Shown: positions 27,101 to 44,696, numbered from the stretch's first letter. The stretch: 64,000 nucleotides of DNA from Candidatus Saccharimonadota bacterium (GCA_026707815.1 JAPOWB010000006.1:3830-67829); one strand, 5' to 3'. The notes: generated by a model not told the origin, from the letters alone. Translations and numbers: made by a program.

Positions 27101-27342
27101 TCTTCAGACTCTTCATTAATAAAAGCTGGAGCATCATCGCTTGGAGGCTGATCTGGAAATTCTAAGTCTTGGAGATCTTGGCTTTCTTGATCTGATTCAT
27201 TTTCAGTGGCTGAATATGTAAGAGGCTGATCTTGGAATCTAGATCGCTGGAGATTGAGTTGCTGAAGTTCATCTGAATAAAGAATCTCTTCTTCAATTTC
27301 CTCTTCTATTTCTGGTTCATCTTCTGAGCGAAAAACAGCCAT
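24142..27342 (-). CDS. Large (1066 aa) polytopic membrane protein of unknown family, T4SS-like operon
   Basis: Acidic N-terminus, a basic stretch (RRLRQRQQQPNQSSNRNRRK), and a first TM segment. A further TM lies near residue 400, a TM cluster near residues 600-700, and a long C-terminal soluble region follows. No motif I can assign. Confidence 0.5.
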   Translation of the reverse strand: MAVFRSEDEPEIEEEIEEEILYSDELQQLNLQRSRFQDQPLTYSATENESDQESQDLQDLEFPDQPPSDDAPAFINEESEDQKETSLIRRLRQRQQQPNQSSNRNRRKILLGIGSFLMPTLIGVLLLLLFSHVGGILEHVNRISTGLRFGHFHFSLSRRFNHLYHAYNRAHFNGKSLSGKDIPPNKRIVLTDRLFGTTPNQIFNHLTGADYDMGEFNRFRHSPWWTWGRKTLSGVRSPDGRPIPLNDIKDLNNFRDDINRNLYNGGRFDSYRAHRSAVYIAKITGMPFVRFRLLIHDLKNGTLKNRIRGSPGALKTAVNQEINHNISEGKSRLRRLVGADSALKKMGITDAELEAARQDYKTGATGEQIRSGISEGRQAQLNNFNTHVLRGASQVSLAIGISTVVCVLYELSQVIQKTFKTKINGMIDTAVTMDTVTSQIKAGEAESHVVADLSSRFNGFATSANYQVGILGRSASVYKDVEGVDYSNEYSVEAGPGGLSLKKILQYGQYFNPAHGFQKLQGIFDNPNQYEGEISIDDANLFQNSDQDSFKSNVKQISDTDLTNELKNSGLDNYTYRSSLAGAAIPHFDTSSWRGVFKSFFSVVLFPFLKVFGAVAEWALKPVFNYLGDVFEQLCNMLLNPVAQIVIAIVELGAMLFSLGIGVLAKTGGQLLIGQVVKNILIAGGTVGSGFVFDHFIFNKVMGSVVEEATGINTSLLNDINNSANGARNYALVDYGKHHLAQAEASGHGGVAIGVDEALRQTQISLALQRNYYAEQGIWSNIFALNNPYSTASSLLASHHYQDSFEEKAKTYIAGLTKNFQPGINLFDQAYADNHSTPQEAEALASLLYPGQQRVIGFWPEMMDGSGILRDNISTDIFDNAVYVEGIEGVAGIEVESGGLDTNRYAQCINLDMADWYLYVQGAELEESDRYDFCFKNDDAAERIKILRYNLYYQDCLAINYIQLANTDTSPMFSNACDSLLVEQQRETLIEADTELELGTFSEPVQPSTEPISQVSEVIDQTDKILTVASEDAQSCLNPIEMLNQRIAWGLNWLRLPKLKSEQLVA

Positions 27343-27401
27343 TTTTAAGATATTATAACACTGCCGTTAGAGAAGATTGTTCTCTAATAAGGGGATTGGA
27401 A

Positions 27402-29261
27402 TCAAGATTTTTGCGAGGATTGTTGAGGGGATTTTTGTTCTTGTAAAGCTAAAAGTTCATCAGGGGAAGTGGTGATTAAGTCTTGTTCCGATGGTGAAGC
27501 TAAAACCTGCATCTCGACATGTCTGCGTCCGGCAAAAAACAATCCTTGACCAACGGGGAATTGATTAAGAAGCTTCTTTTCATTTTGAGTTAATTTAAAA
27601 ACCTCGCTCAGCAGATCAATAGCTGTTGAAGATTGCTTTAAAAGTAATTGCATGCTGGAATTAGCGATGATTGACCGACCCAATCTAGAAGATGTGAAAT
27701 CTTCTACATCTTGAGTAATATTTGTAATCCCTAAATTATATTTTCTAGCCCTCTTAGTTAAGCCGAACATAAAATTTGCTGAATCCTCATATTTCATAAT
27801 TTGCCAAGCTTCGTCAACAATTAAAATACGTTTTCGCTTATCACTTCGAGTTTTGTTCCAGATATAATTTAAAACCATGTACATTCCGATAGGTCTAATT
27901 TCATCCTCTAAATCTCGAATATTAAAAACCACCAATTGATTATCTATTTTGACATTACTTTGCTGACTAAATAGTCCAGCAAAAGTGCCAGACATATATT
28001 TACGCAACCTTTGAGCCAGTTTTGGTCCACTACCGCCCATATGAGACAAAGTGTCATGGAGATCTGCCAATATTGGTGGCGGACTGCTATGAGTTAAGGG
28101 ATCTCTGGTAATACCAGCTTTGGCATAGGTGTCAATCAGAGCAACATCTAAATCAGCTTCTTCTGTTGGATTTAAAATAACCTGTATGCCAGCTGAGGTC
28201 TGCATACCTCCAAGCATTAGCCTCAACAAGCCATGCAGATCAATCAAATTATTCCTTAAAACATCTTCATCATCGTCATCATGCTCGACTTTTGGCAAAT
28301 CAAAAGGATTAATCCGACTTGGACTGGATAAACTGAGATTAATATATGTCCCGCCGACAGCCTCAGCCATTCTCTGGTATTCGTTTTCTGGATCAATAAT
28401 AATAACCTCAACCCCCAGCATCATTAATCTCAAAGCCTCCAGTTTGACAGCAAAACTTTTACCAGCTCCAGACTCGGATAGAACCACAGAATTACTATTT
28501 TCTAGACTAAATCTGTCAAAAATAACTAAACCTGAATTATGCAAATTAATGCCATATAAAATACCTCGATCCTGAGTTAAATTAGCGCTAGTGAAGGGAA
28601 AGGTGGTTCCTAAAGCCCCAGTATTCATATTGCGTCGAATCATTAATTGGTCTAAACCCAGAGGAGCAACAGAATTGAAAGCTTCTTCCTGTTGAGCCGA
28701 AGCCGGTTTGGAATAAATTAATTGACGATTCAGCAAGGCTTCAATTCTTTTGTGGTCTATTTCTAAGCCCTCCAAATCCTGAGCGTAGACTGTGTAGTAA
28801 AAACCAAATCTAAAGAATCTCTCTTCCCCCATTTGGAGTCGATCCCTCATATCTTCAGTGTCTAAAAGTTGAGCTTCTTTACCTGGGTCTCGGACTCGAC
28901 CCTTTTCTCTATCTAGGGTGATACTAGCTTCAAGCTGAGTAGTTTTACGCCTTAAATTTTTTAAAATTGTGGCTGTCTGAACTGGGTAAATATGCAGAGT
29001 AATATCCATAATTTGAGGCAGTGAAATCACCTGTCCCAACCAACCGCTATAAACCTCCCGGGGATAGCCGAAAACATAGGCGCTTCTAACATAACTAACC
29101 CCCATTCTGAAATAGGTGCTAAAAAATTCTAAACTTGGCGGGGCAATAAAATCCAGTAAACTAGTTATTCCCTGTTGATAAGCGGCTTGGACAGCCTGTT
29201 GTTCTTGAAGTCGCTTTTCTTCTATTAAGGCTTGGGGATCTTTAGGCTTAGATTTAAACAT
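27402..29261 (-). CDS. virB4: VirB4/TrbE/CagE-type T4SS ATPase (C-terminal two-thirds of a canonical VirB4)
   Basis: Walker A SESGAGKSF and Walker B RILIVDEAW. The upstream VirB4-typical region reads YVRSAYVFGYPREVYSGWLGQVISL...LHIYPV, and a TQDVEDF-like motif lies downstream. Confidence 0.85.
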   Translation of the reverse strand: MFKSKPKDPQALIEEKRLQEQQAVQAAYQQGITSLLDFIAPPSLEFFSTYFRMGVSYVRSAYVFGYPREVYSGWLGQVISLPQIMDITLHIYPVQTATILKNLRRKTTQLEASITLDREKGRVRDPGKEAQLLDTEDMRDRLQMGEERFFRFGFYYTVYAQDLEGLEIDHKRIEALLNRQLIYSKPASAQQEEAFNSVAPLGLDQLMIRRNMNTGALGTTFPFTSANLTQDRGILYGINLHNSGLVIFDRFSLENSNSVVLSESGAGKSFAVKLEALRLMMLGVEVIIIDPENEYQRMAEAVGGTYINLSLSSPSRINPFDLPKVEHDDDDEDVLRNNLIDLHGLLRLMLGGMQTSAGIQVILNPTEEADLDVALIDTYAKAGITRDPLTHSSPPPILADLHDTLSHMGGSGPKLAQRLRKYMSGTFAGLFSQQSNVKIDNQLVVFNIRDLEDEIRPIGMYMVLNYIWNKTRSDKRKRILIVDEAWQIMKYEDSANFMFGLTKRARKYNLGITNITQDVEDFTSSRLGRSIIANSSMQLLLKQSSTAIDLLSEVFKLTQNEKKLLNQFPVGQGLFFAGRRHVEMQVLASPSEQDLITTSPDELLALQEQKSPQQSSQKS

Positions 29262-30159
29262 TATTAGGCTCTTTTTGACTTTGACTTAAATCTTCAGAAG
29301 ATTGAGTAACTTTAGCTAAATCTTCAGCCTGATTCCAGGTTTTTTGGAAGTCAGTTATATTTGCTGGAGCAGCTTTTTGAGTCTGTTGTTGAACAACAGG
29401 TTCTAACATATCTTCAACTTCAGGCAGGGGTTCAACTAGGTTTTGTAAGGGGTTATAAAAATCATGGTACAAAACAATTAACTCTTTAGTTTTAAGGGGT
29501 CGATTTCGAATTCCACACAAACCTAAACCACTGCTAATAGAGTTAATCCGGTAATTCAACTCAGTCTTAGCTTTTTTTAAATTTCGTTCATCGACGATTA
29601 GGGGGGCTGATTTATTGCTGAATATGGCAGTGAATTTATTGAGAAAGTTTTTGCCAGTTGTAGTGAAAGTTTCAGGACTAAATTCAGAATTGAAAAATGG
29701 TAAAACTATGTAGAATTTTTTCTCCATTACATGAGTGTTATCGACCAAATTAGCAATGAAATCCAAATAATCCGAAGTTATAACTTGAAGCAACATATTA
29801 TTTTGTTTTTGCAGAGAATTCTCCAAAGTTTTAATGTAATTTTCAACATCAACTGGTCTTGATTGAATATTTATTTGAATTGGAAAGGATAAAGAATTTA
29901 AGAAGTTCTGATAGGCATATTCAACAGATTCTTGTTCTGATTGACTCATCAAATCGAAGTTAATAGCCTCAGCCTCAATCACTGCTCGGAAAGAACCATC
30001 TTTTAAAATGACAATTCCGTCTTTAATCTCGGCAATCTGCAGGGTATTTTGAGTTGAATGAGAGCTAATTTTAGCTTTTTGTTCTAAAATCTTTTTATCT
30101 TGAGGATTTTGAACAATTGCCTGAGATACTTGTGGTTGTTGATTAGATTGTGAATCCAC
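29254..30159 (-). CDS. Protein resembling the N-terminal (non-ATPase) domain of Gram-positive-type VirB4; possibly a split VirB4 subunit
   Basis: IAEIKDGIVILKDGSFRAVIEAEAINFDLMSQSEQESVEYAYQNFLNSLSFPIQINIQSRPVDVENYIKTLE resembles, from memory, the start of PrgJ/TrsE-like VirB4 proteins. Its stop overlaps the VirB4 start by 8 nt (AATAATGTTTAA). Confidence 0.45.
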   Translation of the reverse strand: MDSQSNQQPQVSQAIVQNPQDKKILEQKAKISSHSTQNTLQIAEIKDGIVILKDGSFRAVIEAEAINFDLMSQSEQESVEYAYQNFLNSLSFPIQINIQSRPVDVENYIKTLENSLQKQNNMLLQVITSDYLDFIANLVDNTHVMEKKFYIVLPFFNSEFSPETFTTTGKNFLNKFTAIFSNKSAPLIVDERNLKKAKTELNYRINSISSGLGLCGIRNRPLKTKELIVLYHDFYNPLQNLVEPLPEVEDMLEPVVQQQTQKAAPANITDFQKTWNQAEDLAKVTQSSEDLSQSQKEPNNV

Positions 30160-30173
30160 CCCTCTGAAGTCCT

Positions 30174-30911
30174 TTATTTCTGTATTTTATTAATGATACT
30201 TTCTAAAACAGCGATTTTCAAATCTTTGGCTTCAGCTAATTTGGGAATCATGCCAAAAACTGGAGATGATTTTTGGCTGCTTTGGGCTTGTGGATCAAGG
30301 GTTGGTTGATCTGTCTGACTCAACTGTTGCTGTTTGACATTTGTCTTAATGCGAGATTTGTGGTTTTGATGATGATGATTTAAGAGACTATAAAAATGTT
30401 GATTAAGAGATAACTGTTGACGTTCATGTTCTTGGTCTACTGTGATGGTTTCAGAAGTTGCTAGGTTGCTTTGATGATTTAAAATGGATTGACCTCGACT
30501 ATCTAAAACTTCCGTAATATTCTGAATTTCTTGATTAGCTTGTTGAGCATCCAATTCTTTGCGGGGATCAGTAACAATCTTTTCAGAAGGGGTCTTTTTT
30601 TGAATGATAATTTCAGGCTGTCCCCCCTGAATCCACAGCCGAGTTTTAGATTTGAATAAGAAATTTAATTTAGCCAATAACCAAACTTCATTTGGTTGAT
30701 CTTGCCCCAAGGGTAAAGCCAGAAAAATAAGAGGTGCAGCAAATAAACTGAATAAGAACAAAAAGAAAAGATGCCCAAAGGTTGAGACTGATAAATAACC
30801 AACGAAGAGCAACCCACAGCCAATAAAGGCAAAGATAAATTGTTTCAGGCTTAACCGCCAAATTATCTTGTCTTCAGCTTCAATGTCTTGGAGGATTTTA
30901 TATGAGGCCAT
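30174..30911 (-). CDS. PrgI-family / VirB3-like small membrane protein
   Basis: The N-terminus YKILQDIEAEDKIIWRLSLKQFIFAFIGCGLLFVGYL is followed by a second TM segment. This matches the PrgI-family pattern (xIPxxIxxEDKIxxxLTxRQ + 2 TM). It sits upstream of VirB4, as VirB3 usually does. Confidence 0.55.
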   Translation of the reverse strand: MASYKILQDIEAEDKIIWRLSLKQFIFAFIGCGLLFVGYLSVSTFGHLFFLFLFSLFAAPLIFLALPLGQDQPNEVWLLAKLNFLFKSKTRLWIQGGQPEIIIQKKTPSEKIVTDPRKELDAQQANQEIQNITEVLDSRGQSILNHQSNLATSETITVDQEHERQQLSLNQHFYSLLNHHHQNHKSRIKTNVKQQQLSQTDQPTLDPQAQSSQKSSPVFGMIPKLAEAKDLKIAVLESIINKIQK

Positions 30912-30922
30912 GTATCAAGCTG

Positions 30923-31906
30923 TTATTGATTAGATTGTGGATTCTTGGAGTCAATCCCCCGACTTTCAAATAATTCCGTAACTTCTGGTTTGAGGTTGAC
31001 TCTAGCGACTGGCAAATCGACTATACTTTGGGCTCTATCTCTCATGCGGGTAGAGGGGTCATTGTCTAGGGCATTTTCCCAAGCACCTCTTGACCATTTT
31101 TGAGAATGGATTTCTGGTAACTGGAATAGAATATCAGTACCTAATCGCACTGATCCATCTTGTTGCCTGCTGGCGGTAGCTAAATCTGGGTCACTTTCAA
31201 GGAGAGATTCCCGCCATTTTTCAGAAGTCATAGCATCCGCCAATGTTTGTCTAGCAGCCGTGTTTTCGGGATGTGCAGTAGATTGAACCATGTTGCGAAT
31301 TATTGAAGTCTCTCCTCGCCTCATTAGTTCATTAACAGCCGCCAAGGATTGAGCTCTGGTTGCTTTAGTGCTGGTTGCAATATTTTCAAGCTGGCTGGCA
31401 TCCACATTGTAAGTACTTGCAGCAAGCTGTTGAGCTTCTTCTTGAAGGTGAATCTGATCGACCATATTTCTTGCTTGGGATCTTCCGTCGGCTCTATTAT
31501 GGCGCTTCTCTCTGCGACTTCCGGGAGAAGCTTCTTGTCTTCTTTGTCTTCTTCTAGTTCGCCAATCATGTATATTTTTCTGATCTCTAAATCGTCCTCC
31601 CTGCTCTAATCTTTTCAACTCCCCCCCTGCCTTATGGACGAGTTTTTGTAAAGGACCAGCTGTTCCTGCCATTAGTTGATGTTGACGCCTGATTCCACGA
31701 GCTATACCTTTATTCTTCATCCGATTTTTGCCAAATTCTCTCAACCTATTTCTTGGTCTATCTATTAAGCCCTTACTTCTATCATTAATAGTCCCCGTCA
31801 GTTGACCCAATAAACCACCAAATCGCTTAGCCATAAAGGGAATAGCCAAGAAAGCTCCAATATAGACAATTAAAGCCAACAATCGTTTAATGGGATCAAT
31901 TTCCAT
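30923..31906 (-). CDS. Single-TM, highly basic (Arg-rich) protein of unknown function, T4SS-like operon
   Basis: N-terminal TM (LLALIVYIGAFLAIPFMA), then R/K/Q-rich stretches (RTRRRQRRQEASPGSRREKRHNR). No family recognised. Confidence 0.4.
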   Translation of the reverse strand: MEIDPIKRLLALIVYIGAFLAIPFMAKRFGGLLGQLTGTINDRSKGLIDRPRNRLREFGKNRMKNKGIARGIRRQHQLMAGTAGPLQKLVHKAGGELKRLEQGGRFRDQKNIHDWRTRRRQRRQEASPGSRREKRHNRADGRSQARNMVDQIHLQEEAQQLAASTYNVDASQLENIATSTKATRAQSLAAVNELMRRGETSIIRNMVQSTAHPENTAARQTLADAMTSEKWRESLLESDPDLATASRQQDGSVRLGTDILFQLPEIHSQKWSRGAWENALDNDPSTRMRDRAQSIVDLPVARVNLKPEVTELFESRGIDSKNPQSNQ

Positions 31907-31946
31907 AATCTGTAACCTATTATATCATTGACATAAATTCCACCAC

Positions 31947-34328
31947 CTACCAATCAGTCTGAATAATTAACCAAGAAAAGAATTTACCAAAGGCAATAAT
32001 AGTGACAATTACTGGATATAAAAGTAATAAGTAGAAGAAGGTTTTAAAATAAAACCGCCAAGCCCGGTCATTGCCTGGCAAAATCCAAAGAGCTAAACCA
32101 ATAGGCCCAAAAACTAAAAGAGCAATTATAAGAATTTTTCTAAAGACCAAAAATAAATAAGCAATAAATAAGCCAATAGCCAAAGTAAACATCACGGGCA
32201 ACAAAAGAACCCACCCCCAGACTGCTCCACCTACTGCTATGATGGATAAGCCATCAGTCTCAATTCCACCACCACCCAGTATTTTATCCAGACCCCACCC
32301 CCTTAATTCAGTTGGGGCAATACCATAGATGATGCTTGCCATCAAATCGCCTAATTGAGTAAAACCTTGAATCATTAAATCTCCTAAAATCCATGAAAAT
32401 TGGATAAAGATAGTTCCAGCCACTAATTTTGGCAGATATTTTTTAACGGTATAATTTTTAAAAACACCAATATCAAAGGCAGTTGAAATAATCATAAACA
32501 GAGCCGTGCCAATAATGGCATAGGTGACAAAATCTCGCATAGTTGACCACAGCTCGTACAGATAATGTGGATCGTTGTCACCAGCTAGTTGATTATGATC
32601 GTCGTCAACAGCTGGTTGATTATATTTGCTGCTATCAATTCTTAAACTGTCTGTAGCCTGAGTTTCAGCCCAGTTTAAAATCCCAGTTGCCGCTTCCAGT
32701 AATGGACATATCACCCAGCTCAACCATCCAGCCAAAACTTCGCAATTTTGGGGGGCTGGATTTGAAGATGAAGAATTGCCTTGGACTACATTCTGACCAG
32801 AAACAGCAGTATCCCCTGTTGGGGATTCCAATACTATTACCACTAAAGTGCTTTTCTTGTTACCATTAGCTGGACCCTCGTCACACTTATCTTTCCAGTC
32901 TTGCCATATACCAAAACCAAAACCTTTATCAACAGCACTGCTGAAGGAGTTTTTTTCAATGAGAATACGACTGCCACATTTACGAACATTTTCCTCTGTA
33001 AGTTCTGTTAGATATTCCGTAAAAACATAAAAATCATCTGTGTCCATCTCACTATGCCTGTGATTGTGATTGGGGGATTTATAGGATTCTGTTTTCCTGC
33101 GATCCGACTCTGCATTGCATTCCCATTTATTTTCTGTACCATCTCTTCGCTCTAAATTATCGCCCCAAATCCCAGACATCGCCGTACCATCACATTTCCC
33201 CTCATCTTTAATTTGTTCTATAACGTCAGATTCCATGACATAATCCACTCTATCCAATCCTTGCTCGATGGGATCTATATCAATAATCGCTAAGCCATCG
33301 TTTTTATACGAGTACCTCTTGCAGGGGTCAGTATTGTGCGCATCATTATCTTGAACTATTCCACGTATTGGGTAAGTGGAATCATTTTCAAAATTTGTAA
33401 ACTCATCCTTATGAATAAGGATGCGATTACCACATTTATTAGTTCTCTGCTCTATGAAGACATAATAATTGTTGCTAGCGTCTTGTAGCTCATCAGATTT
33501 CGATGAATCATAGCCTTCAAAATGATCATACTCATCTGATATTCCCGGTAAGTATAATGCTTGATTGGCTTTGAAAAAATCATCATAACAAAACCATTGT
33601 CTGCTACCTGATTTCAACTCATCTCCGCCCTTACCCCATAAGATGACATTTCTGCAACTATTGCCCTCGGGTAGTTCATTCAAAGAATATTTATTCAATA
33701 AATGACTTGGCGGAGGCTGATTACCTTCTTCTGCGCCTATCCTGATAGTCTTTACTCGCAGTCCAATCTCGTTCTGTGTCACCACCCATTGGTATTCAGA
33801 GGGTGGATCAGTCCCACCATCACTAGTCTGAGTGTGGTTAGGTCCATCTTTGCAACTTGCTGACCAGTATATTAACTCTGCTTCGCGAGCGGAATTATTA
33901 TTGTTGTTAAAGACGTCTTGATTAACAGCTATGACATGCCCACAACCAAACTCGCCAAAAGCGTGAAAACCCAATTTGCCGGGAGTTCTTTCCAAAAAGA
34001 TATAGCTTTCTTGGGCAATGGCTTGAAAATCCCCATCTTCGTCATCTAAGGATATATATTTTTTAATATCATCATAGCAATCCCAGAGAGTATCGCCCTC
34101 AGTATTCGCAGTTGAAGATGTTGTTGAAGTCGGTGCTGAAGGCGGTCCAAAAAGCACAACTCCCATACATGAATCCCCATCGGGCGCTCTATTAAACCCA
34201 TATACTGGTATATCGTAAGCTGATACTGGGGTCGAGAAACAAAGACAGACTAAAATAAATATTAGAAGCCAACTTCCTAAAATTAACTGATTATTGACCC
34301 CCTGAATGCTTTTCAGAATATGATGCAT
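31947..34328 (-). CDS. VirB6/TrbL-like polytopic membrane protein with a large triplicated Cys-rich N-terminal ectodomain
   Basis: Signal or TM start, about 520 aa of extracytoplasmic sequence with three related modules, then about 6 TM helices in the last roughly 260 aa, as in VirB6/TrbL-type channel subunits. Confidence 0.6.
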   Translation of the reverse strand: MHHILKSIQGVNNQLILGSWLLIFILVCLCFSTPVSAYDIPVYGFNRAPDGDSCMGVVLFGPPSAPTSTTSSTANTEGDTLWDCYDDIKKYISLDDEDGDFQAIAQESYIFLERTPGKLGFHAFGEFGCGHVIAVNQDVFNNNNNSAREAELIYWSASCKDGPNHTQTSDGGTDPPSEYQWVVTQNEIGLRVKTIRIGAEEGNQPPPSHLLNKYSLNELPEGNSCRNVILWGKGGDELKSGSRQWFCYDDFFKANQALYLPGISDEYDHFEGYDSSKSDELQDASNNYYVFIEQRTNKCGNRILIHKDEFTNFENDSTYPIRGIVQDNDAHNTDPCKRYSYKNDGLAIIDIDPIEQGLDRVDYVMESDVIEQIKDEGKCDGTAMSGIWGDNLERRDGTENKWECNAESDRRKTESYKSPNHNHRHSEMDTDDFYVFTEYLTELTEENVRKCGSRILIEKNSFSSAVDKGFGFGIWQDWKDKCDEGPANGNKKSTLVVIVLESPTGDTAVSGQNVVQGNSSSSNPAPQNCEVLAGWLSWVICPLLEAATGILNWAETQATDSLRIDSSKYNQPAVDDDHNQLAGDNDPHYLYELWSTMRDFVTYAIIGTALFMIISTAFDIGVFKNYTVKKYLPKLVAGTIFIQFSWILGDLMIQGFTQLGDLMASIIYGIAPTELRGWGLDKILGGGGIETDGLSIIAVGGAVWGWVLLLPVMFTLAIGLFIAYLFLVFRKILIIALLVFGPIGLALWILPGNDRAWRFYFKTFFYLLLLYPVIVTIIAFGKFFSWLIIQTDW

Positions 34329-34411: not shown

Positions 34412-34440
34412 TTGATAAATAGAGTCTTGAGTATTATAAT
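34412..34440 (+). promoter_or_regulatory. Candidate sigma-70-type promoter for the pilin-like operon
   Basis: TTGATA (34412-34417), a 17-nt spacer, then TATAAT (34435-34440), about 125 nt upstream of the ATG at 34567 in the divergent intergenic region. Confidence 0.4.
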
Positions 34441-34566: not shown

Positions 34567-35754
34567 ATGATTACGAAATTAAGTTTTCATTCTCGGATTG
34601 TATTTTGGGGATCGCTAATCATCCTTGTAATTATTAGTCAGCTATCTTTTGGTATAGTCATGGCTGATTCTTTCAATTCTTTAATTTCAGGCACAGAAGA
34701 TGATTCCCCAACAATTACTATAACCAGTGCATCTACTGGGTTGGTAGACACGATAAAAAAGTGGGAATATAAAGTTCTACATGGCAATCAACCACGAGCA
34801 GTTTGTAAAGAACCCGAAACAAGGCATGTTATCGGTGGAGGCCGCATCGCAACTCTTTGGCAACTCGGCTGGCGAGAGGGTAGACAATACGCAAAGACTT
34901 TAGGGGATGCTGGAAAAGTACTTTGTTTTAGGGGCGAATTTTCTGACAGTCGACTTGGCAGACGAAGCTATCATTATAAAGGAGTGTATCTCGATCCTCT
35001 AAAAACTAGTGAATTAAGTTCTGAGTCTCAAGAAGGGGATTCTGCGATTTCGGTAGACCAAGATACGATCACAATCGAAACCAAATTTCAAGGGGGAGGG
35101 CTTGGTAGGTCTCCGACTCCAATTATCAATTCTGATACTTGGGTGCGACGGATAATCCCCCGAACCACCACTTGTGATGGCTTTGTTTTTTTAAAATACA
35201 CGCGACCAAGCCCCCTTCATCCCATCCCAGCTACTTGGCGACATGCCTGGACTGATTACTCCGGTTCAAGCTATACAATTCCCAAATCGGAATATAATAA
35301 AAACATCAGAATATGTTTTGCTGGTCAATATCTTAATAAAGAGGACAAATGGCATTTTAAACATCACGATGAATTTTATCGTGATCCTGCTTCGAATTTC
35401 CGGTCTTATGAATTTGATCGTGCTAATTCGAATTCCCAGCCTTCTAGTAGTGGGGGTTCCAGCAATCGCAATGTTGATCCGACAGTTGATAGCACTTGCG
35501 AAGACATTAATAATAATTGCCAAGCCTTAGAAACGCTAAATAGTATTCTTAACTATATGGCTATCATTATTTTTCCGATTACCATCATCATGATTATTGT
35601 TGGAGGTATCCAATATTCAATTGCTCGGGATAATCCCGAGGCTGTGGCTTCAGCTAGATCTCGAATTTACAAGGCAGTTTTAGCTTTAATTCTTCTAATT
35701 AGTTTGTGGACATTTTTGCAGTGGTTAATTCCGGGTGGAATTTTGGGAGGTTAA
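34567..35754 (+). CDS. T4SS pilin-like protein with a roughly 330-aa N-terminal ectodomain (internal 2x Cys-containing repeat)
   Basis: N-terminal TM or signal segment. The C-terminal module IIFPITIIMIIVGGIQYSIARDNPEAVASARSRIYKAVLALILLISLWTFLQWL is homologous to the module in the four downstream genes. Confidence 0.55.
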   Translation: MITKLSFHSRIVFWGSLIILVIISQLSFGIVMADSFNSLISGTEDDSPTITITSASTGLVDTIKKWEYKVLHGNQPRAVCKEPETRHVIGGGRIATLWQLGWREGRQYAKTLGDAGKVLCFRGEFSDSRLGRRSYHYKGVYLDPLKTSELSSESQEGDSAISVDQDTITIETKFQGGGLGRSPTPIINSDTWVRRIIPRTTTCDGFVFLKYTRPSPLHPIPATWRHAWTDYSGSSYTIPKSEYNKNIRICFAGQYLNKEDKWHFKHHDEFYRDPASNFRSYEFDRANSNSQPSSSGGSSNRNVDPTVDSTCEDINNNCQALETLNSILNYMAIIIFPITIIMIIVGGIQYSIARDNPEAVASARSRIYKAVLALILLISLWTFLQWLIPGGILGG

Positions 35755-35759
35755 TAAGA

Positions 35760-36230
35760 ATGAAGCGACATTTTTTTCAAATTTTTTGCTTAATTATCAG
35801 CTTACTGAGTTTGTCAGCAGTTTTTAGTCCCTCCGTCGAAGCTAATAGGCACATACCCGATAATTGCCAAGGTCGATCGTTATTGGGTATTCCTTCATGG
35901 GATCGAGGCATATGTTTGGATGAACAGGAGGAATTGTCAGAGTTTTTAGCAGCTAATCGGACTGAAATTTTAGCCACCAATATTATAGTTATTTTAGTCT
36001 CTATCGCTGGCTTAGTGGCGGTGGCTTTTATAATAGTTGGCGGCTTTCTATATGTCTTGGCTTCAGGCAATTCTGAAAAAGCTAAAAATGCTCGGCAAAC
36101 AATCATCCATGCTTTGGTTGGTTTGGTGATTGCCATTATGGCTAGAGTGGTAGCTGAAGTTGTTTGGAGAAACTTAACTGCTGATAATCCACCCAGCCTA
36201 GAAACAGCTTATTTATTAATGAGGTTATAA
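35760..36230 (+). CDS. T4SS pilin-like protein (TrbC/VirB2-type membrane hairpin)
   Basis: I moved the start to the ATG at 35760, with GGGAGG 10 nt upstream. The signal peptide is MKRHFFQIFCLIISLLSLSAVFSPSVEA and there is a Cys pair. The module reads VAFIIVGGFLYVLASGNSEKAKNARQTIIHALVGLVIAIMA. Confidence 0.6.
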   Translation: MKRHFFQIFCLIISLLSLSAVFSPSVEANRHIPDNCQGRSLLGIPSWDRGICLDEQEELSEFLAANRTEILATNIIVILVSIAGLVAVAFIIVGGFLYVLASGNSEKAKNARQTIIHALVGLVIAIMARVVAEVVWRNLTADNPPSLETAYLLMRL

Positions 36231-36784
36231 TGTTTGCTCCATTATTTTCGGTTTTAAGGGCGAATATTGAAATTAATAATTCAGATATTCCCGCCATTCC
36301 CAAGCCTGCTGATCAAACCATTTTGGAAGGTACTCTAAATTTAGTTTTTATAGTTTTGGGAAGCATCAGTTTATTAATTCTGGTGATTCAGGGCATGAAA
36401 TATGCCCTATCTTTAGGTAACTCCGAGCAAGTCAATAGAGCCCGCAATGGCATTATCTATTCCTTGGTTGGGTTAACTGTTGCTACGACAGCTTGGTCTT
36501 TAGTGACCTTTACCTTAGACAGTGTTACTGGACCAGAGACTGTAAATGGTCAGACGTCATCAATAGTTAATTTGCTGGCTAATATTTCTGGTTATTTAAT
36601 TTTTATCACTGCCATTATTTCAATCATTGTCGTTATTATTGGCGGTTTTCAGCTGGTTTTCTCGGAAGGTAATTCCGAGCAAGCTAAAAAAGCTCGGAGT
36701 ACCATCATCTATGCTGTAATTGGTTTACTAATAGCAATCATTGCTGGACCAGTTTTAAAATTTTTCTTTGGTTTTTTTGAATAA
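36230..36784 (+). CDS. T4SS pilin-like protein with two tandem pilin modules
   Basis: Two copies are present: LILVIQGMKYALSLGNSEQVNRARNGIIYSLVGLTVATTA and VIIGGFQLVFSEGNSEQAKKARSTIIYAVIGLLIAIIA. The start overlaps the previous stop (TAATG). Confidence 0.6.
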   Translation: MFAPLFSVLRANIEINNSDIPAIPKPADQTILEGTLNLVFIVLGSISLLILVIQGMKYALSLGNSEQVNRARNGIIYSLVGLTVATTAWSLVTFTLDSVTGPETVNGQTSSIVNLLANISGYLIFITAIISIIVVIIGGFQLVFSEGNSEQAKKARSTIIYAVIGLLIAIIAGPVLKFFFGFFE

Positions 36785-36929
36785 CTTTTGATTTTTTAAC
36801 TGCTACTAGATTAATTATGAGCTACCCTTTAAAAGTCAAAGTTTTAAAATTAAATTTGAGATGGACTTGTAATTGTTAATTGCTATTTTTTATGGTAAAA
36901 TATATTTGACTAATTTAAACAAACAAAAG

Positions 36930-37334
36930 ATGTCAAAGCTTACAATTTTGTCCTTTATTTCTGCTGTGATTTGCTTATTGGTGATTTCTTTAGCTAATCC
37001 TGTTTTGGCAGCTGTCGATTGTGATAACTTACCCCCTCTTAGCGAACTCGCCCCAGCTGAACAAGCCGAGGCGGCTCTCTGCCCTGTAATTGGTAATGAT
37101 ACTGAGACCACAACAGTGCCTGAAATTATTCAAATTATTATTGGGATATTATCTTGGGTGATAGGAATCGCATCTGTGATTGTCATCTTAGTCCAAGGTT
37201 TAAGGCTAATTTTATCCGGAGGTAATTCTCAAACTGCCACCGAAGCTAGAAATGGCATCATTTACGCTCTGGTTGGTCTGGCAGTGGCTATTTCAGCGGC
37301 TATTCTTGTTAGGTATATAGTTGATCAACTTTAA
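36930..37334 (+). CDS. T4SS pilin-like protein
   Basis: I moved the start to the ATG at 36930 (MSKLTILSFISAVICLLVISLANPVLA signal peptide). It has a Cys pair and the module ILVQGLRLILSGGNSQTATEARNGIIYALVGLAVAISA. Confidence 0.6.
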   Translation: MSKLTILSFISAVICLLVISLANPVLAAVDCDNLPPLSELAPAEQAEAALCPVIGNDTETTTVPEIIQIIIGILSWVIGIASVIVILVQGLRLILSGGNSQTATEARNGIIYALVGLAVAISAAILVRYIVDQL

Positions 37335-37409
37335 GGCTTATCTGTCTTTAAGAGGGTTCTCTGGCTTGGGATTTTACTCACTCACCTTAAAGTGTTATAA
37401 TTTGCAATT

Positions 37410-37928
37410 ATGAGTCCAATAAAAATCTTGTCTTTGAATTTAATTTATTTATATAAATCAACCAGTAGATTATTGATAATAGGTTCGGTGAGTTTGTTAT
37501 TTCTTGTTGGCATTCAAATAGCTATTTTTAATCAATCTGCTCATGCATCATGCAGCATAATTACTCATACGACTGAATCTGCTTGTGAAGCTGCCGATGG
37601 TACATGGACAGAACCAGCTTCCACGACCAATTCTATTCAGGGAGGGGTTCAGGAAGGGATAGTGACTGCTGGGGGCGACAACAATGTCAATGCCGAAGAA
37701 TCTTTGAAGGAGACAGTTAATGATATTATTAGTATTCTCGGCTGGATTGTTGGGATTGTTTCAGTTTTAATGTTGATTTATGCAGGTCTGCGTTACATTG
37801 TTTCTGGTGGTTCGGAAAAAGGAGTGACCGCTGCCAAAAAGACCATTATCTATGCTGTTATTGGTTTAGTGGTTGTCTTGCTTTCTCAAACTCTGGTTAG
37901 ATATATTTTTGATCAATTTCTCGACTAA
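37410..37928 (+). CDS. T4SS pilin-like protein
   Basis: Signal-like N-terminus ending AHA, the Cys pair CSIITHTTESAC, and the module LMLIYAGLRYIVSGGSEKGVTAAKKTIIYAVIGLVVVLLS. Confidence 0.55.
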   Translation: MSPIKILSLNLIYLYKSTSRLLIIGSVSLLFLVGIQIAIFNQSAHASCSIITHTTESACEAADGTWTEPASTTNSIQGGVQEGIVTAGGDNNVNAEESLKETVNDIISILGWIVGIVSVLMLIYAGLRYIVSGGSEKGVTAAKKTIIYAVIGLVVVLLSQTLVRYIFDQFLD

Positions 37929-38128: not shown

Positions 38129-38677
38129 CTATAGATTAGTTTGAATTCTAATTTTTTTAATGGCTTCTTGCTTGAGTTTAGTGAAAGCAATCTTTAAAAT
38201 TCCATTTTCTAGGGTTGCTTTAATATCTTCTTTCTTCACATCAACAGGCAGTTCAATACTCCGAGAAAATTGCCCCCAATAACATTCTTGGACATAGTGA
38301 TTTTCAACAGTCTCAGTAATTGGCATTCCCAAAGTTCCTCGTATACTTAAGACATTATTGGAAATACTAACATCCATTTCTTTTTCATCAACTCCAGCTA
38401 CTCGGCATAAAACAATTAAATAATCCTTAGTTTCATAAACATCTAAAGCTAATTGACCGGGTAGATCAATTTTTTCGGATTCAACCCAATCTTGAGGATC
38501 ACTCTCTTGGACTTCCTTAGCCATTTCTTCATTTTGCTGAGGTTGATGATTTGATGCATCAGAATCAGTGGCTGTGGTTGGGTTTACCTGATTAATGGCA
38601 TTATCAACCTCTTCGAGGAAACCAATCAAATCATCTCCACTGTTGGGATTATAATCTTTACTCTTATCGATAGCCAT
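38129..38677 (-). CDS. Small heat-shock protein (Hsp20/alpha-crystallin family)
   Basis: Alpha-crystallin domain: LDVYETKDYLIVLCRVAGVDEKEMDVSISNNVLSIRG...LENGILKIAFTK. Confidence 0.85.
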   Translation of the reverse strand: MAIDKSKDYNPNSGDDLIGFLEEVDNAINQVNPTTATDSDASNHQPQQNEEMAKEVQESDPQDWVESEKIDLPGQLALDVYETKDYLIVLCRVAGVDEKEMDVSISNNVLSIRGTLGMPITETVENHYVQECYWGQFSRSIELPVDVKKEDIKATLENGILKIAFTKLKQEAIKKIRIQTNL

Positions 38678-39373: not shown

Positions 39374-39450
39374 GTACCCGTAGCTCAGCTGGATAGAGCG
39401 TTGGTTTGCGGTACCAGAGGTCACAGGTTCAAATCCTGTCGGGTACGCCA
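39374..39450 (+). tRNA. tRNA-Arg (GCG anticodon)
   Basis: Acceptor GTACCCG/CGGGTAC, D arm GTAGCTCAGCTGGATAGAG (identical to the remembered E. coli tRNA-Arg D arm, with A20). Anticodon stem TTGGT/ACCAG with loop TTGCGGT (U33, G34-C35-G36, G37). T arm ACAGG-TTCAAAT-CCTGT and encoded CCA. Confidence 0.85.
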
Positions 39451-40318
39451 GAACGAATGCTATGGAACTTACTCTTACTTTTTAACTGTTTCACCTCTGT
39501 TAATTCTGAATTTAAACTGGTTCCACCTACATTTTTTAAAACATCTTCCGCTTTGATCAAAAACAGTGAATTTACCCCCGTTAAACTAGTGGTTCCACCA
39601 ACTAATTCTCTATAAGTTGGTAATCTATGGAAAAGTAATCCAAAAAGCTTAGCCTTCATGAAATTATCTAGCTTATTGTTGGCAAAATCTCCCAAATGAC
39701 TCATCAAATGTTGAATCTTTATCTTCAATTTACTTAGGTCTGGCATCCTTTCAGAAGACAAAGCTTGCTTCTCATTTTTAAGTTTTGCAATCGCTACTTC
39801 TAGACTAGATATGTCTTGTTCCAGAGATTTAATAGTTGATTCGTTGCTTAAAAGTTTAATTTTAGCAATATAAGACTGCAATTCTAGCTCTAAATTAGTG
39901 ATTTGCTTTTCAAAACTAACCACTTTATTTTGATGCCCAGCTTGAACCGCATTAAAAGATTCCTCTAAAACTTCAAAGATCTGCTCCATTTTTTGGGGAG
40001 ATAGTCGCAATTTAGATACAAAACTATCTACAGTAGCTTCTAAATCTTTTTTACTCACTCTAAAACTGTGATTTTTACCCCTGCTACAATGATAAGCAGG
40101 ATAATATTTACCACTTCTGCCCCTAGAAGCACTGCCTAATAATGGCTTATGACAATCTGGACATAAAAAAATTTCTTATAAGGATATTCGTGGCTACGCT
40201 TACCTTTATCTGTGTGGCGAACATCTTTAAAATCTTTAACTTCAATCGCTCCATCTTCTTTTTCAAGAATAACTCTACTGCCTCTATTGACCTTATTAAA
40301 CAAATGTATCAACTGCAA
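39429..40318 (-). pseudogene. Large serine recombinase-like gene, N-terminally truncated and frameshifted
   Basis: Two ORFs (40318-40136 and 40058-39429) join through a frame change at an A7/T7 run (40165-40171). The restored reading ...YPYKKFLCPDCHKPLLGSASRGRSGKYYPAYHCSRGKNHSFRVSKKDLE... is a zinc-ribbon motif followed by a coiled coil, as in the C-terminal half of large serine recombinases. No catalytic N-terminal domain is present. Confidence 0.6.
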
Positions 40319-40791
40319 TGAATAAATTCCACTTCTTTCATTATGTCGAGAGGATATCTTTTGCAGTCAATGTTTAATTTTAAACAAACATCAGGAATTT
40401 TCATTTGAGGTTGGTCCTTTCTGCGTCTACTTTCATAACTTAAAATAGATAGGGAATATTCTTGAGCATAAGCAATCATATGAGTATCAGCTATAGATCT
40501 GCTGTTACCAACATTATCTTTAGTAATCATTTTGAATCTTTTATTGATTTCTTGAGCTTGATCAATAATATTCTCATTAACTGCTTTAATCAGTTTTTGC
40601 TTTCTTAAATCAGTAATCCACTCCTTTAATCGTGATGGATATTTGCATTCATTCGCTATAGAATCAATTAATACAATTTGACCTTTTTCAATCTTATCTC
40701 TTAAATCTTGCCAAAAATTCTTGTGATAATCATGGGGACAAAAATTAGCAAAATAAATCAAAATATTAGCATCTATTAGATAAGATCTCAT
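40309..40791 (-). CDS. DUF4411 (PIN-like nuclease fold) protein; putative toxin/effector
   Basis: MRSYLIDANILIYFANFCPHDYHKNFWQDL...IADTHMIAYAQEYSLSILSYE...KIPDVCLKLNIDC matches the remembered DUF4411 pattern (YLLDANVFI...FW..L / ADP.lIA.A / kIPdvC). Confidence 0.7.
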   Translation of the reverse strand: MRSYLIDANILIYFANFCPHDYHKNFWQDLRDKIEKGQIVLIDSIANECKYPSRLKEWITDLRKQKLIKAVNENIIDQAQEINKRFKMITKDNVGNSRSIADTHMIAYAQEYSLSILSYESRRRKDQPQMKIPDVCLKLNIDCKRYPLDIMKEVEFIHCS

Positions 40792-40794
40792 GGC

Positions 40795-41925
40795 TTAAAA
40801 ACTCCCCAGTGGTAAACGTAATAATTTCTGAGTCTCTGAAGCACTTAATCTATTATCTAAATGTAGTGAAAAAATATATTCATTAAACAAAGATCCATTG
40901 CCAGATTTAATAGATGCATGGGGCGAAAACCCCCGTCTATCACTGCCTCGAAATGATTTTTTATTTTCCAAATTCTGCTGTATCTCAGATTTAAAGAAAT
41001 TCTCCAATCCATTTAAATCACTATAATTAATTTTCTTGAGATCTTTTAGTCTATAAAAGCAAGCAAGACTGCTAACTTGAAATTTTTTAGCTAAATCCTT
41101 GATGCCTTCAACATTTTCATACACCAATTGAGGTATTTCTGATTTGGGCATTAAGAAGTGAGCAGCTACTTGATTACAAAAAATCTCCTCTTTATCTTTA
41201 ATTTGATCAAATTGCCTAAAATCGATACTGTCCAAACTATCTTCTGCTCTAAACAGGTGGACTAGTTCGTGGGCTAGAGTAAATAATTGACCTGTTGAAG
41301 AATCTTCTCTATTCAATGCTATCAAAGGAGCATATTGATCATTAATATATATACCCCTCATTTCTGCTAAATCTATCTTCTCATTTCTTAAAACCGTGTT
41401 TTTGAAAACAAAAATATATTGTTTTTCTAGCAGTTCTCTTAAGTGAGCTGGAGCTTTTTTATTATTTAAATCTTTAATACGATAACCAATTTTACTTGTT
41501 ATAAATTTAGCTAGAGATTCTGCATCCTTATAATTGCAACCAGAACCTACTAAGTTATTACTAGATGTTTTATCAAATAGCATATTGTAACGAATAATAC
41601 TCTGTCTAGTCTTTAATAAACTAATAAATCGCTTTAGGTAATAGCTTTCTTCAATCTTTGTACTACGATATGCTGGAATAGTCTTAGAAATTTCTAGATT
41701 TTCTTTCATTAGAAGGTGAAAAGGTGAAATATTATAAATATCAGCTAATTTTTCTAACTGTTTATAACTCGGAGATTTATCTGTAATATTACCCGCTTCC
41801 CATAAAGCAACTTTGTCTTTCTTGGTTTTTGGATTAATTTTATGAGTAGCTTCTTGAGTAGATAAATCCATATTTTCCCTAGCAATTTTTAAGTTACTAA
41901 AATTAATATCTTGACGCCAACTCAT
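40795..41925 (-). CDS. XRE-type HTH fused to an ImmA/IrrE (M78, COG2856) zinc metallopeptidase; putative antitoxin/sensor-regulator
   Basis: N-terminal HTH (LSTQEATHKIN...ALWEAGN...SYKQLEKLADIYNISPFHLL) and an HExxH motif in FTLAHELVHLF. It lies 3 nt upstream of the DUF4411 gene. Confidence 0.75.
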   Translation of the reverse strand: MSWRQDINFSNLKIARENMDLSTQEATHKINPKTKKDKVALWEAGNITDKSPSYKQLEKLADIYNISPFHLLMKENLEISKTIPAYRSTKIEESYYLKRFISLLKTRQSIIRYNMLFDKTSSNNLVGSGCNYKDAESLAKFITSKIGYRIKDLNNKKAPAHLRELLEKQYIFVFKNTVLRNEKIDLAEMRGIYINDQYAPLIALNREDSSTGQLFTLAHELVHLFRAEDSLDSIDFRQFDQIKDKEEIFCNQVAAHFLMPKSEIPQLVYENVEGIKDLAKKFQVSSLACFYRLKDLKKINYSDLNGLENFFKSEIQQNLENKKSFRGSDRRGFSPHASIKSGNGSLFNEYIFSLHLDNRLSASETQKLLRLPLGSF

Positions 41926-42842: not shown

Positions 42843-44696
42843 TTAGATAGCTTCTGGTTGAGAATTATTTACTGTATTAGTTGGTCTTGTAGAACCACCG
42901 CTTAGACATCGACCATTGTCTGCTCTAATCTTGGTTGTGTCATGACAGCCATAAGGATTAAGTCGAATCTTTTCTATAACACTTAAATTTGCCCAATTAG
43001 CTGGCAAGACAACATCCGTCTCAGTGGTTGGCGTTGGATCCACTTCAGGGGGTTGTTGTGAATCTTCAGCTTCTGGTTGAGAATTATTTACTGTATTAGT
43101 TGGTCTTGTAGAACCACCGCTTAGACATCGACCATTGTCTGCTCTAATCTTGGTTGTGTCATGACAGCCATAAGGATTAAGTCGAATCTTTTCTATAACA
43201 CTTAAATTTGCCCAATTAGCTGGCAAGACAACATCCGTCTCAGTGGTTGGCGTTGGATCCACTTCAGGGGGTTGTTGTGAATCTTCAGCTTCTGGTTGAG
43301 AATTATTTACTGTATTTTCAGCCTCATCATTTTCATCATCAATCTCTGCTGATTCACTTATGTTGGACTCATCTTCTAAAACATTAGTCAAACCTTTAAC
43401 TTTAAAAGTTAATTTTATGGGTTGACCTCTTAAATATCGAGCATCCCCCTCAAGGAGCATAAAAGACTGGGTAATAGAAGCCGCTAATTCGGGGATAGTT
43501 AAAAAGAATTCGAAATTAGCCTCGGCTTGAGGGGCTACTGAATTTTCTTTCAAAACAATGCTCTTAGGGCATGCAGATTGCGTTGTTGGGGCAGTTTGGC
43601 AAATATGATTTTGATAACCATCAGCTTTGTAAGGGACTAAAGATACTTGTTGCTGATCTGAGACTTGATGCCAAGCCTGATTAGAAGTATTCGTGAATGC
43701 CACAGAAATATAGACCTGCTTTTGGGGGTCTACTGGAGTAGTTTCTAAATCAATCTCAGTTGTTTTGGTGAAATCAGTATAAACTGCCAGAGTTTTTAAT
43801 TTAAATTCATCACCAGTCTCTTCTTCAACCTCAGTAGTAGAAGTTCGGCTTGAGCCAAACCAATGATTGAAGTATGTCCAGAAATTCCGATTACCATAAC
43901 TGCTACAAGCATCTCCTTCACCATAAAAATTATCTAAAGCAGCTTGATTGGGTAAATAGGGAGTGTATAGGTATAAAGCTACTGTGGCTTCATTTTTTAA
44001 ATTTAAAACTGTAGAACCACAATTTCTATTGGGATGATAGTAAATAGTGTTATCACCTAGGCTATACCACCAATCATCCAAATTATCTAAATAATGTCGC
44101 AACTGCCAAGCCAGTCCATTAATTTGATTAATAAAACCCAAAGTTTTGCTATTGCAATCCGCATGATCAGGGCAACCATAACCGGTTGCTTTAGAGAATT
44201 GCCTTGGCCAAGGCCAGGTATCCGTTAATAAGCTTTGTTCCTTTTGTAAAACAGCTAATAAGACCTGAGGATTTATTTTATAAGTTTGAGCTGCTTGATA
44301 GATGATTTGAGCGGATGATTGTCCACCCTCAATATTAGTTGGGTCACCATTTTCATCAAATAAACCATAGTTATCTGCCCCAGTCTCGGGATTTTGCTGA
44401 TATTCCGCTAAACAAGTATAGGGAGGTATGGGTAGAGCTGCGTAGATGTTTTCATGATGATGTTCACAACCTCCGACTGAAGCTAAAGTTTCATTCAAGA
44501 AAGCTTGAATGTCTTCAGTTGTCATAGTTTCATAATCGGTAAAAACCTCATTATCAATAATATGTCCAGCATTAAACTGAGAAGTATCCAAATTAGCAGA
44601 CAAAGCACTCACTGAGCTCGAATTCAAGCTAATGAAACTAATCAACAAGAGGCTAATCAAACTTAGCCAAGATAAAGAAATAGTTCTATGATACAT
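42843..44696 (-). CDS. Secreted protein of a conserved family (possible cell-wall/glycan-active), with C-terminal 73-aa perfect tandem repeats
   Basis: Signal peptide. The N-terminal 300 aa carry motifs I recognise from a widespread secreted-protein family: FNAGHIIDNEVF...IQAFLN, SAQIIYQAAQTYKINPQVLLAVLQKEQSLLTD, GYGCPD, YLYTPYLPNQAAL, CSSYGNRNFW..F..WFG. The C-terminus holds 2.1 copies of a 73-aa unit. Confidence 0.6.
   Translation of the reverse strand: MYHRTISLSWLSLISLLLISFISLNSSSVSALSANLDTSQFNAGHIIDNEVFTDYETMTTEDIQAFLNETLASVGGCEHHHENIYAALPIPPYTCLAEYQQNPETGADNYGLFDENGDPTNIEGGQSSAQIIYQAAQTYKINPQVLLAVLQKEQSLLTDTWPWPRQFSKATGYGCPDHADCNSKTLGFINQINGLAWQLRHYLDNLDDWWYSLGDNTIYYHPNRNCGSTVLNLKNEATVALYLYTPYLPNQAALDNFYGEGDACSSYGNRNFWTYFNHWFGSSRTSTTEVEEETGDEFKLKTLAVYTDFTKTTEIDLETTPVDPQKQVYISVAFTNTSNQAWHQVSDQQQVSLVPYKADGYQNHICQTAPTTQSACPKSIVLKENSVAPQAEANFEFFLTIPELAASITQSFMLLEGDARYLRGQPIKLTFKVKGLTNVLEDESNISESAEIDDENDEAENTVNNSQPEAEDSQQPPEVDPTPTTETDVVLPANWANLSVIEKIRLNPYGCHDTTKIRADNGRCLSGGSTRPTNTVNNSQPEAEDSQQPPEVDPTPTTETDVVLPANWANLSVIEKIRLNPYGCHDTTKIRADNGRCLSGGSTRPTNTVNNSQPEAI
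42849..43316. repeat. Perfect 219-bp tandem repeat, 2.14 copies, in-frame within the CDS 42843-44696
   Basis: Unit starts at 42849, 43068 and 43287 were located by matching AGCTTCTGGTTGAGAATTATTTACTGTATT. Copies 1 and 2 read identically base for base. Copy 3 is the first 30 nt only. Confidence 0.95.

Follow-up and report, generated by a model that had tools for sequence, protein, structure and literature searches.

Positional orthology, gene fusion and strain-level variation in a six-module pilin-family array beside a Saccharibacterial type IV secretion locus

The array and its closest described counterparts

The closest described counterpart of the genes reported here is the six-pilin array of Saccharibacteria, known from Southlakia epibionticum ML1 (SEML1_0014-0019) and Nanosynbacter lyticus TM7x. 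The array of TM7x, which is expressed, was named a "secreted protein array" and was compared with the pertussis toxin (McLean 2020). The genes were later re-annotated as pilins, and the pilin subunits were called essential in S. epibionticum by transposon insertion sequencing (Tn-seq) (Wang 2023); the tables of that study list six genes of Pfam family PF18895 (T4SS_pilin), SEML1_0014-0019, flanked by a large, divergently encoded membrane protein and by Hsp20. A survey of 383 Patescibacteria assemblies gave 441 arrays of 2-11 VirB2-like genes (Quinonero-Coronel 2025), and a 2024 perspective described the role of the Saccharibacterial type IV secretion system (T4SS) as completely unknown. Here, we analyzed 64,000 nucleotides (nt) of Candidatus Saccharimonadota bacterium (GCA_026707815.1 JAPOWB010000006.1:3830-67829; this whole stretch is called the window, and positions are counted from its first letter), of which five consecutive plus-strand genes (g1 to g5, 34567-37928; Table 1) carry six PF18895 helix-loop-helix modules (~80 amino acids (aa) each).

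The five genes probably encode six VirB2-like pilin paralogues of a chromosomal, monoderm-type (MPF-FATA-like) T4SS, orthologous to SEML1_0014-0019, that would be distinct subunits of one surface structure. Because the arrangement is exactly that of SEML1_0013-0020 and was published earlier, the array itself is a known feature; it is ordinary for Saccharibacteria and, judged by sequence, the window holds an orthologous instance. Family, module number and strands are the same as in the published array, as are the flanks (divergent VirB6-like gene upstream, Hsp20 downstream), and the last gene is set off by a gap (~84 nt in ML1, 75 nt in the window). The window differs from ML1 in that positions 3 and 4 are fused, which gives five genes instead of six. 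A preceding inspection of the DNA alone (the sequence-only reading) had called a six-module array unusual; this is correct with regard to canonical Gram-negative T4SSs, but such an array is the published norm in Saccharibacteria. The positional orthology, the fusion of positions 3 and 4, the position-6 promoter and the confinement of variation to g1 and the VirB6-like protein are new with regard to the published accounts consulted, in which they were not found, and they offer testable handles on the build of the machine and on possible host recognition.

As for the origin of the window, the VirB4-like protein is 62-68% identical to those of 80 loci, mostly titled Saccharibacteria or Saccharimonadales, and in VirB4 the lineage reaches only 62-68% identity with GTDB species representatives; by sequence, the genome is of Saccharibacteria, Saccharimonadia (TM7). 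The same five-gene array was found on three near-identical contigs, namely NCBI GCA_026708245.1 and two scaffolds of ENA metagenomes that bear the labels ROBB21/SHAF22 and are presumably from sponges.

All five genes exceeded the PF18895 gathering cut-off (26.6 bits), with 39-60 bits and E values of 2e-10 to 2e-16. The pairwise identity of the six modules was 21-42% (blastp E down to 5e-21), which fits the published values for array pilins (mean 25%, maximum 54%; Quinonero-Coronel 2025), and four module copies were recognizable at the DNA level (61-72% over 61 nt). No seventh module was found in the six-frame translation of the window with a hidden Markov model (HMM) built from the six modules (next best E = 1.4). 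The N-terminal parts (~22, 52, 62, 90 and 315 aa) showed no mutual similarity (blastp E > 0.3). The sequence-only reading had described five plus-strand genes with six shared modules, a gene at 36230-36784 that holds the module twice, unrelated N-terminal parts and a TAATG overlap of g2 and g3 at 36228-36232; all of the open reading frames (ORFs) and its six quoted strings are present, two PF18895 stretches were found in that gene, and the overlap is exact. It had also proposed a pilin-like module in a T4SS locus, with which the PF18895 scores agree, together with sub-threshold matches to PF04956 (TrbC/VirB2; gathering cut-off, 27.9 bits): g5 reached 23.2 bits (27.1 for the isolated module) and g3 19.3 bits, both below the cut-off, and the other genes had no match. 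PF04956 was matched at E < 0.01 by 18 of 31 related modules. This result indicates a superfamily relationship at the sequence level, the window genes not being family members. A protein 99% identical to g5 is named "pilin" at NCBI. Note that longer genes are possible for g2 (GTG start at 35706) and g4 (TTG start at 36873).

The array resembles VirB2/TrbC/TraA (PF04956) in the signal peptide, the two long hydrophobic helices and the short basic loop, in its location beside virB4, virB3 and virB6 homologues, and in that the sub-threshold matches cover the same region. However, one major pilin and VirB5 are found in those systems and six specialised paralogues in the window, of which the host is a monoderm without an outer membrane and the extracellular peptides have conserved Cys pairs; for the window proteins, cyclisation and a filament would be hypothetical. 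Across the module, all five genes matched NCBIfam NF045849, an 80-residue model of the Mbov_0395 family of the Mycoplasma integrative and conjugative element (ICE), with E values of 1e-4 to 4e-13; g3 exceeded the cut-off (48.8 vs 40 bits) and the single-module genes were below it (21-25 bits). Like the window array, the pilin-like Mbov_0395 protein belongs to an MPF-FATA-type system, found in bacteria that are monoderm or have no wall; its ICE is a conjugative system, from which a six-paralogue array is not known. Since the array genes match NF045849, VirB2-like hairpins appear to occur in MPF-FATA systems of Mollicutes, and the matches bear on a published statement that Gram-positive-type T4SSs, which are normally without pili, also lack virB2 homologues.

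Positional orthology and the fused gene

Among the 80 related loci, 50 had modules, and 38 had exactly six (complete arrays range from 5 to 8), in every case upstream of the T4SS operon and divergent from it. The top-10 cross-genome matches of positions 1, 2, 3 and 6 were to the same position in >97%. Position-specific HMMs classified 215 of 222 modules correctly, each module being within its own training set, and assigned the window modules to positions 1, 2, 3, ambiguous, 4/5 and 6: g1 scored 81.9 with the position-1 HMM (at most 43 with the others), g2 scored best with the position-2 HMM (76.0), and g4 scored 80.6 and 75.7 with the position-4 and position-5 HMMs, respectively. The N-terminal part in the relatives is long and Cys-rich at position 1 (46-221 aa, with a median of ~135 aa for the whole part vs 282 aa for the much larger mature ectodomain of the window), short, without a signal peptide and mostly without Cys at position 3, and composed of a signal peptide and a short mature peptide at positions 4-6. 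Position-2 orthologues conserve a C..FLGFPTWYKYL..C motif, of which CQGRSLLGIPSWDRGIC is the window version. Exactly two Cys were found in the N-terminal part of 30-36 of 37 orthologues at positions 2, 4, 5 and 6. By sequence, the six modules are position-specific orthologues, and the Cys pairs are kept paralogue by paralogue.

The two-module gene g3, which has neither a signal peptide nor Cys, is a conserved fusion that joins positions 3 and 4. The locus that ranks second in VirB4 identity (L060) has the same five-gene, six-module layout, and its fused gene is colinear with g3 (40% identity over 159 aa) and has modules that classify as positions 3 and 4; the fusion architecture was also found in nine further clusters (179-192 aa). 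The fusion is topologically consistent, because hairpins whose two ends are both outside can be joined in series, the second module needing no signal peptide. An assembly artefact or frameshift was considered for the two-module gene and rejected, as it is identical in three strains and found in other lineages with 40-80% identity.

With a profile of the two-module gene, 25,204 representatives were obtained at E <= 1e-3. Most of the best 150 are multi-module proteins, with tandem modules numbering 2 in 63, 3 in 35, 4 in 19, 5 in 8, 6 in 5, 7 in 8, and 8, 9 and 10 in one protein each; one of them (P0112, 1147 aa) has 10 tandem pilin modules, and two others (P0068 and P0074) have near-identical internal repeats. 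The modules of these polypilins were mostly ambiguous by the position HMMs, and polypilins are, as sequence evidence of the Rosetta-stone type, weaker than the 3+4 fusion. When metagenomes were scanned for the surroundings of P0068 (six modules), the only locus obtained was a distant one (L084) with separate pilin genes. Polypilins were not found mentioned in the published accounts consulted.

The position-6 module is the most conserved one (mean pairwise identity of 60% vs 38-46% for the others). A gap of 51-122 nt precedes position 6 in 37 of 37 related loci, whereas positions 2-5 abut or overlap (gaps of ~0 nt). The motif TTGnnn-N15-19-TATAA was found in 27 of these 37 gaps (0.55 expected from shuffles) and the extended -10 motif TGnTATAA also in 27, the match being 27-37 nt from the ATG in the relatives. 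Position 6 has, as predicted from these motifs, its own conserved promoter.

Strain-level variation and the subunit model

The window was compared with two close strains (synonymous divergence (dS), 0.02-0.06). The modules are 100% identical at the protein level across the three strains and, by sequence comparison, under purifying selection; g2-g5 are at least 99% identical (g2 99-100% and g4 100% to both strains). In the g1 ectodomain, the identity to the two strains falls to 90% and 86%, with indels and with all six Cys retained. The ectodomain ratios of nonsynonymous to synonymous differences (Nd:Sd) were 27:4 and 46.5:14.5, vs 25:38 and 20:54 in the pooled codons of the other pilin and T4SS genes (Fisher p = 1.7e-5 and 1.4e-8; pN/pS, the corresponding ratio of proportions, 1.9 and 0.9). 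No homologue of this ectodomain was found beyond the two close strains. The VirB6-like ectodomain is also hypervariable (67% aa identity with indels and 72 gapped columns vs L082, where with a pS of 0.58 it looks like an exchanged allele), and the VirB6-like membrane domain is near-invariant between strains, with few positions that differ. As far as these alignments go, strain-level divergence is confined to the g1 and VirB6-like ectodomains. A diversity-generating retroelement was rejected as the source of the g1 variation; the differences are scattered and include indels, and no template/variable repeat pair was found in 20000-45000. The sequence-only reading had pictured a conserved core with variable tips, which holds for g1 only, because among the array genes only the g1 ectodomain diverges between close strains; the ectodomains of g2-g5 are paralogue-specific yet conserved. 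Its caveat that the genes might be unexpressed duplicates is at odds with the purifying selection and with the orthologues that are essential or expressed in cultured relatives.

Some observations concern the two variable proteins themselves. The position-1 paralogues have an invariant C-terminal W-L-I-P-G-G (g1 residues 386-391, 35722-35739), a GGIQY motif and, directly before the module, a near-invariant Cys (C311), with a second Cys in most members; these features are missing from the other five positions and could be a processing or docking site. The VirB6-like ectodomain (~500 aa) shows by eye three Cys-containing repeats (W.CYDD ... YVF.E ... KCG.RILI.K..F), which were not recovered by blastp self-comparison. 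Blastp also revealed neither internal repeats in the g1 ectodomain nor similarity between the g1 and VirB6-like ectodomains.

The paralogues might be interchangeable, being alternative or antigenically variable major pilins for evasion or host-strain matching, as was raised for Patescibacteria (Quinonero-Coronel 2025). Bartonella, Anaplasma and Rickettsia have several divergent tandem virB2 copies at a T4SS locus (cited in Quinonero-Coronel 2025), which are read as antigenic or host-range variation, with alternative pilins proposed for the Bartonella and Anaplasma arrays. The low identity of the paralogues (21-42%) and the true strain variability of g1 are in line with this view. However, in contrast to those arrays, number, order and sequence are conserved here and one member is variable: 38 loci keep six modules in the same order, with orthology specific to each position; the strains agree in g2-g5 at 99-100% identity; translation is coupled across positions 2-5; and one polypeptide joins two different positions. 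In addition, the pilin subunits were called essential, and the Tn-seq rows of SEML1_0017-0019 are marked essential (Wang 2023). We regard this alternative, which the sequence-only reading had also listed, as unlikely, since the position-specific orthology across 38 genomes disfavours it; antigenic variation fits g1 only. The array is best read, from its sequence conservation, as a heteromeric set of fixed composition rather than one of interchangeable pilins.

With regard to the topology, a hydrophobic stretch at the N terminus precedes an AXA-type site in g1, g2, g4 and g5, and g3 has neither, so that the sequence-only reading was right in describing mostly signal-peptide-like starts. The VirB2-type layout (signal peptide, two hydrophobic helices and a short charged loop) is found in the same four genes, and a class III (prepilin peptidase) signal is absent from the start of all five proteins (g1-g5). 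The net charge is acidic in the ectodomains and basic in the inter-helix loops; together with the AXA signal peptides, this is consistent with an N-out/C-out topology, and the N-terminal parts would be outside the cell, as was first proposed. The Cys pairs noted in g2, g4 and g5 at that time are present (Table 1), and the six Cys of g1 (at 80, 120, 203, 250, 311 and 318) had been overlooked. The gene at 14592-15326 that had been linked to disulfide formation indeed encodes a DsbA-type, membrane-anchored thioredoxin with a CPAC site; however, it lies 20 kb from the array and has no specific link to it.

The published reading for TM7x, in which the array would consist of secreted effectors or toxin subunits exported as T4SS substrates, like pertussis toxin S1-S5 beside ptl (McLean 2020), gains from the Sec-type signal peptides in four of the five genes and from the adjacent T4SS genes. 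Nevertheless, every protein has two long C-terminal hydrophobic helices and a pilin-family match, g3 is without a signal peptide, no toxin-domain match was found for the array proteins in Pfam or NCBIfam, and the identity to pertussis S1 is only 11% (McLean 2020); this explanation seems to us very improbable. No match of g1 to a VirB5/TrbJ model was found either (at E <= 0.1, only PF18895, DUF6112 and a spurious RMF match), and the likeness of g1 to these pilus-tip proteins is, as an analogy, functional only.

The AlphaFold2 model of g3 has four long helices (28-60/65-99 and 111-143/149-183) with a mean predicted local distance difference test (pLDDT) score of 65.5, and that of g1 has the module helices at 317-355 and 357-387, the g1 ectodomain scoring below 50 (alignment of 18 sequences). 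The hairpins may form no extended pilus but a ring, stalk, channel lining, c-ring-like pore or base embedded in the membrane or wall. The usual absence of pili from Gram-positive-type T4SSs points in this direction, as do the fused polypeptides of 2-10 modules, which are hard to square with monomer-wise extraction from the membrane, and the ATP synthase subunit c listed as an ECOD match in the structure-based annotation of SEML1_0018 (Wang 2023). On the other hand, the modelled helices, at 31-35 residues, would be longer than a bilayer needs, and the conserved basic loop and the extracellular Cys-pair peptides fit a surface-exposed polymer. Helices of 31-35 residues resemble those of solved conjugative pilins. 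A ring or stalk is considered unlikely.

For the six distinct subunits that we prefer, each two-helix hairpin would enter the cytoplasmic membrane via Sec or YidC, with its ends out and its basic loop in, and the adjacent T4SS would use the six as non-interchangeable subunits of one pilus or wall-spanning conduit, a surface structure that would be needed for the interaction of the epibiont with its host bacterium. The T4SS is essential to the epibiotic lifestyle by Tn-seq, in S. epibionticum only. More tentatively, the roles may be divided: position 6 (g5) would be the abundant major subunit expressed from its own promoter, positions 2-5 would be low-copy adaptors or minor pilins with coupled translation in the operon, and position 1 (g1), along with the variable VirB6-like ectodomain, would act at the distal or host-facing end through its large, disulfide-bonded variable ectodomain. 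The full proposal, in which each of the six modules is an obligate subunit, specific to its position and with the role given above, of a single heteromeric T4SS filament or conduit, and in which the fusion and the polypilins reveal a contact between positions 3 and 4, is put forward as a possibility with more doubt than confidence. If true, a dedicated minor pilin set would be described for the first time in a T4SS pilus, and position 1 and the VirB6-like ectodomain would set the host range; position 6 is the subunit to tag for imaging, and position 1 and VirB6 are the candidates for host-range swaps. The minor-pilin sets of type IV pili and the type II secretion system (GspG with GspH-K) are a functional analogy only: they are likewise fixed syntenic paralogues with a common hydrophobic module, differing exposed parts and one abundant major subunit, but their fold, targeting signal and machinery are unrelated to those of the array.

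Several points weigh against this model. The window proteins are slightly under the TrbC/VirB2 cut-off. The g3 model gave a best E value of only 0.28 in a Foldseek search of the PDB, with only BAR and other helical proteins, hairpins being poorly discriminated, and no solved pilin was found in the PDB by a sequence search with g5 or a profile search with 31 modules (the best matches, a phosphate transporter (E 0.076) and MacB (E 0.031), were judged spurious). No filament has been reported in the literature for any Saccharibacterial T4SS. The position roles are drawn from conservation, gene spacing and a promoter motif, sequence does not cleanly separate positions 4, 5 and 6, and the promoter-like site of g5 in the window is only 9 nt from the ATG, vs 27-37 nt in the relatives. 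The pN/pS of ~1 in the g1 ectodomain would be equally expected from relaxed constraint.

The T4SS operon and neighbouring genes

The monoderm-type T4SS operon (23083-34328) is on the minus strand and divergent from the array, its core genes (VirB4-, TrsD-, PrgI/VirB3- and VirB6-like) being at most 7 kb away (Table 1). A close homologue of the VirB6-like protein has a faint TrbL_3 match, and SEML1_0013 of S. epibionticum occupies the same place in the locus. The Hsp20 gene downstream is arranged in the same way in L081-L083 and in S. epibionticum ML1 (SEML1_0020 after SEML1_0019). As for promoter-like sites in the region 5' of g1, their count is not above the shuffled expectation, which makes them weak evidence.

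Table 1. Features of the array and its surroundings in the window
Feature	Coordinates	Strand	Length	Match or remark
YidC gene	18261-19274			
VanY-type peptidase	23083-24126	-		Pfam VanY
Protein of unknown function	24142-27342	-	1066 aa	T4SS operon
VirB4-like ATPase	27402-29261	-		Pfam TraG P-loop/AAA_10
TrsD-like / VirB4 N-terminal domain	29254-30159	-		NCBIfam TrsD, Pfam TraC-like
PrgI/VirB3-like	30174-30911	-		Pfam PrgI
Protein of unknown function	30923-31906	-	327 aa	T4SS operon
Extended VirB6-like protein	31947-34328	-	793 aa	Divergent; Cys-rich repeated ectodomain and polytopic C-terminal membrane domain
Promoter-like site TTGATA-17-TATAAT	34412-34440	+		Divergent intergenic region 5' of g1; consensus scan 11/12
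g1, position-1 pilin paralogue	34567-35754	+	395 aa	PF18895, 40.9 bits
g1 signal peptide (aa 1-33)	34567-34665	+		
g1 ectodomain	34666-35511	+	282 aa	Strain-variable; six Cys
g1 pilin module	35512-35751	+		Position-1 signature GGIQY...WLIPGG
g2, position-2 pilin paralogue	35760-36230	+	156 aa	PF18895, 41.2 bits; signal peptide, short ectodomain with Cys pair CQGRSLLGIPSWDRGIC (C36/C52)
g2 module	35946-36227	+		
g3, fused two-module gene	36230-36784	+	184 aa	PF18895, 60.5 bits, two stretches
g3 module A (position 3)	36296-36529	+		
g3 module B (position 4, by synteny)	36530-36781	+		
g4, position-5 paralogue by synteny	36930-37334	+	134 aa	PF18895, 39.4 bits; signal peptide, Cys pair C31/C51
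g4 module	37086-37331	+		
Promoter-like site TTTACT-17-TATAAT, upstream TG	37373-37401	+		75-nt gap before g5; consensus scan 10/12
g5, position-6 paralogue, candidate major pilin	37410-37928	+	172 aa	PF18895, 54.5 bits; signal peptide, Cys pair C48/C59
g5 module	37680-37925	+		
Hsp20 gene	38129-38677	-		Pfam HSP20; conserved downstream neighbour, array end marker

VirB4 is apparently split, as the 301-aa TrsD/TraC-like ORF (29254-30159) shares 8 nt with the beginning of the 619-aa ATPase gene. The dnaA/dnaN genes (20268-23058, plus strand) directly adjoin the T4SS operon, which puts the operon close to the origin, as published for some Patescibacteria. Three tRNA-Met genes lie within 1 kb (6424-7370). 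A perfect 219-nt tandem repeat (42849-43316; two full copies and 30 nt) was found in a minus-strand ORF (42843-44696; 617 aa, no Pfam match); because the ORF of L081/L083 is shorter by exactly one 73-aa unit (544 aa), the copy number of the repeat differs between strains. Past the array and a tRNA-Arg gene, the minus strand of 39429-41925 encodes a 209-aa coiled-coil-like protein with a weak Mu Gam-like match, of which the length varies by strain (209 vs 296 aa), a 160-aa ORF with DUF4411-containing homologues, and an IrrE/Peptidase_M78 protein; this segment is possibly what remains of a small toxin-antitoxin system or mobile element.

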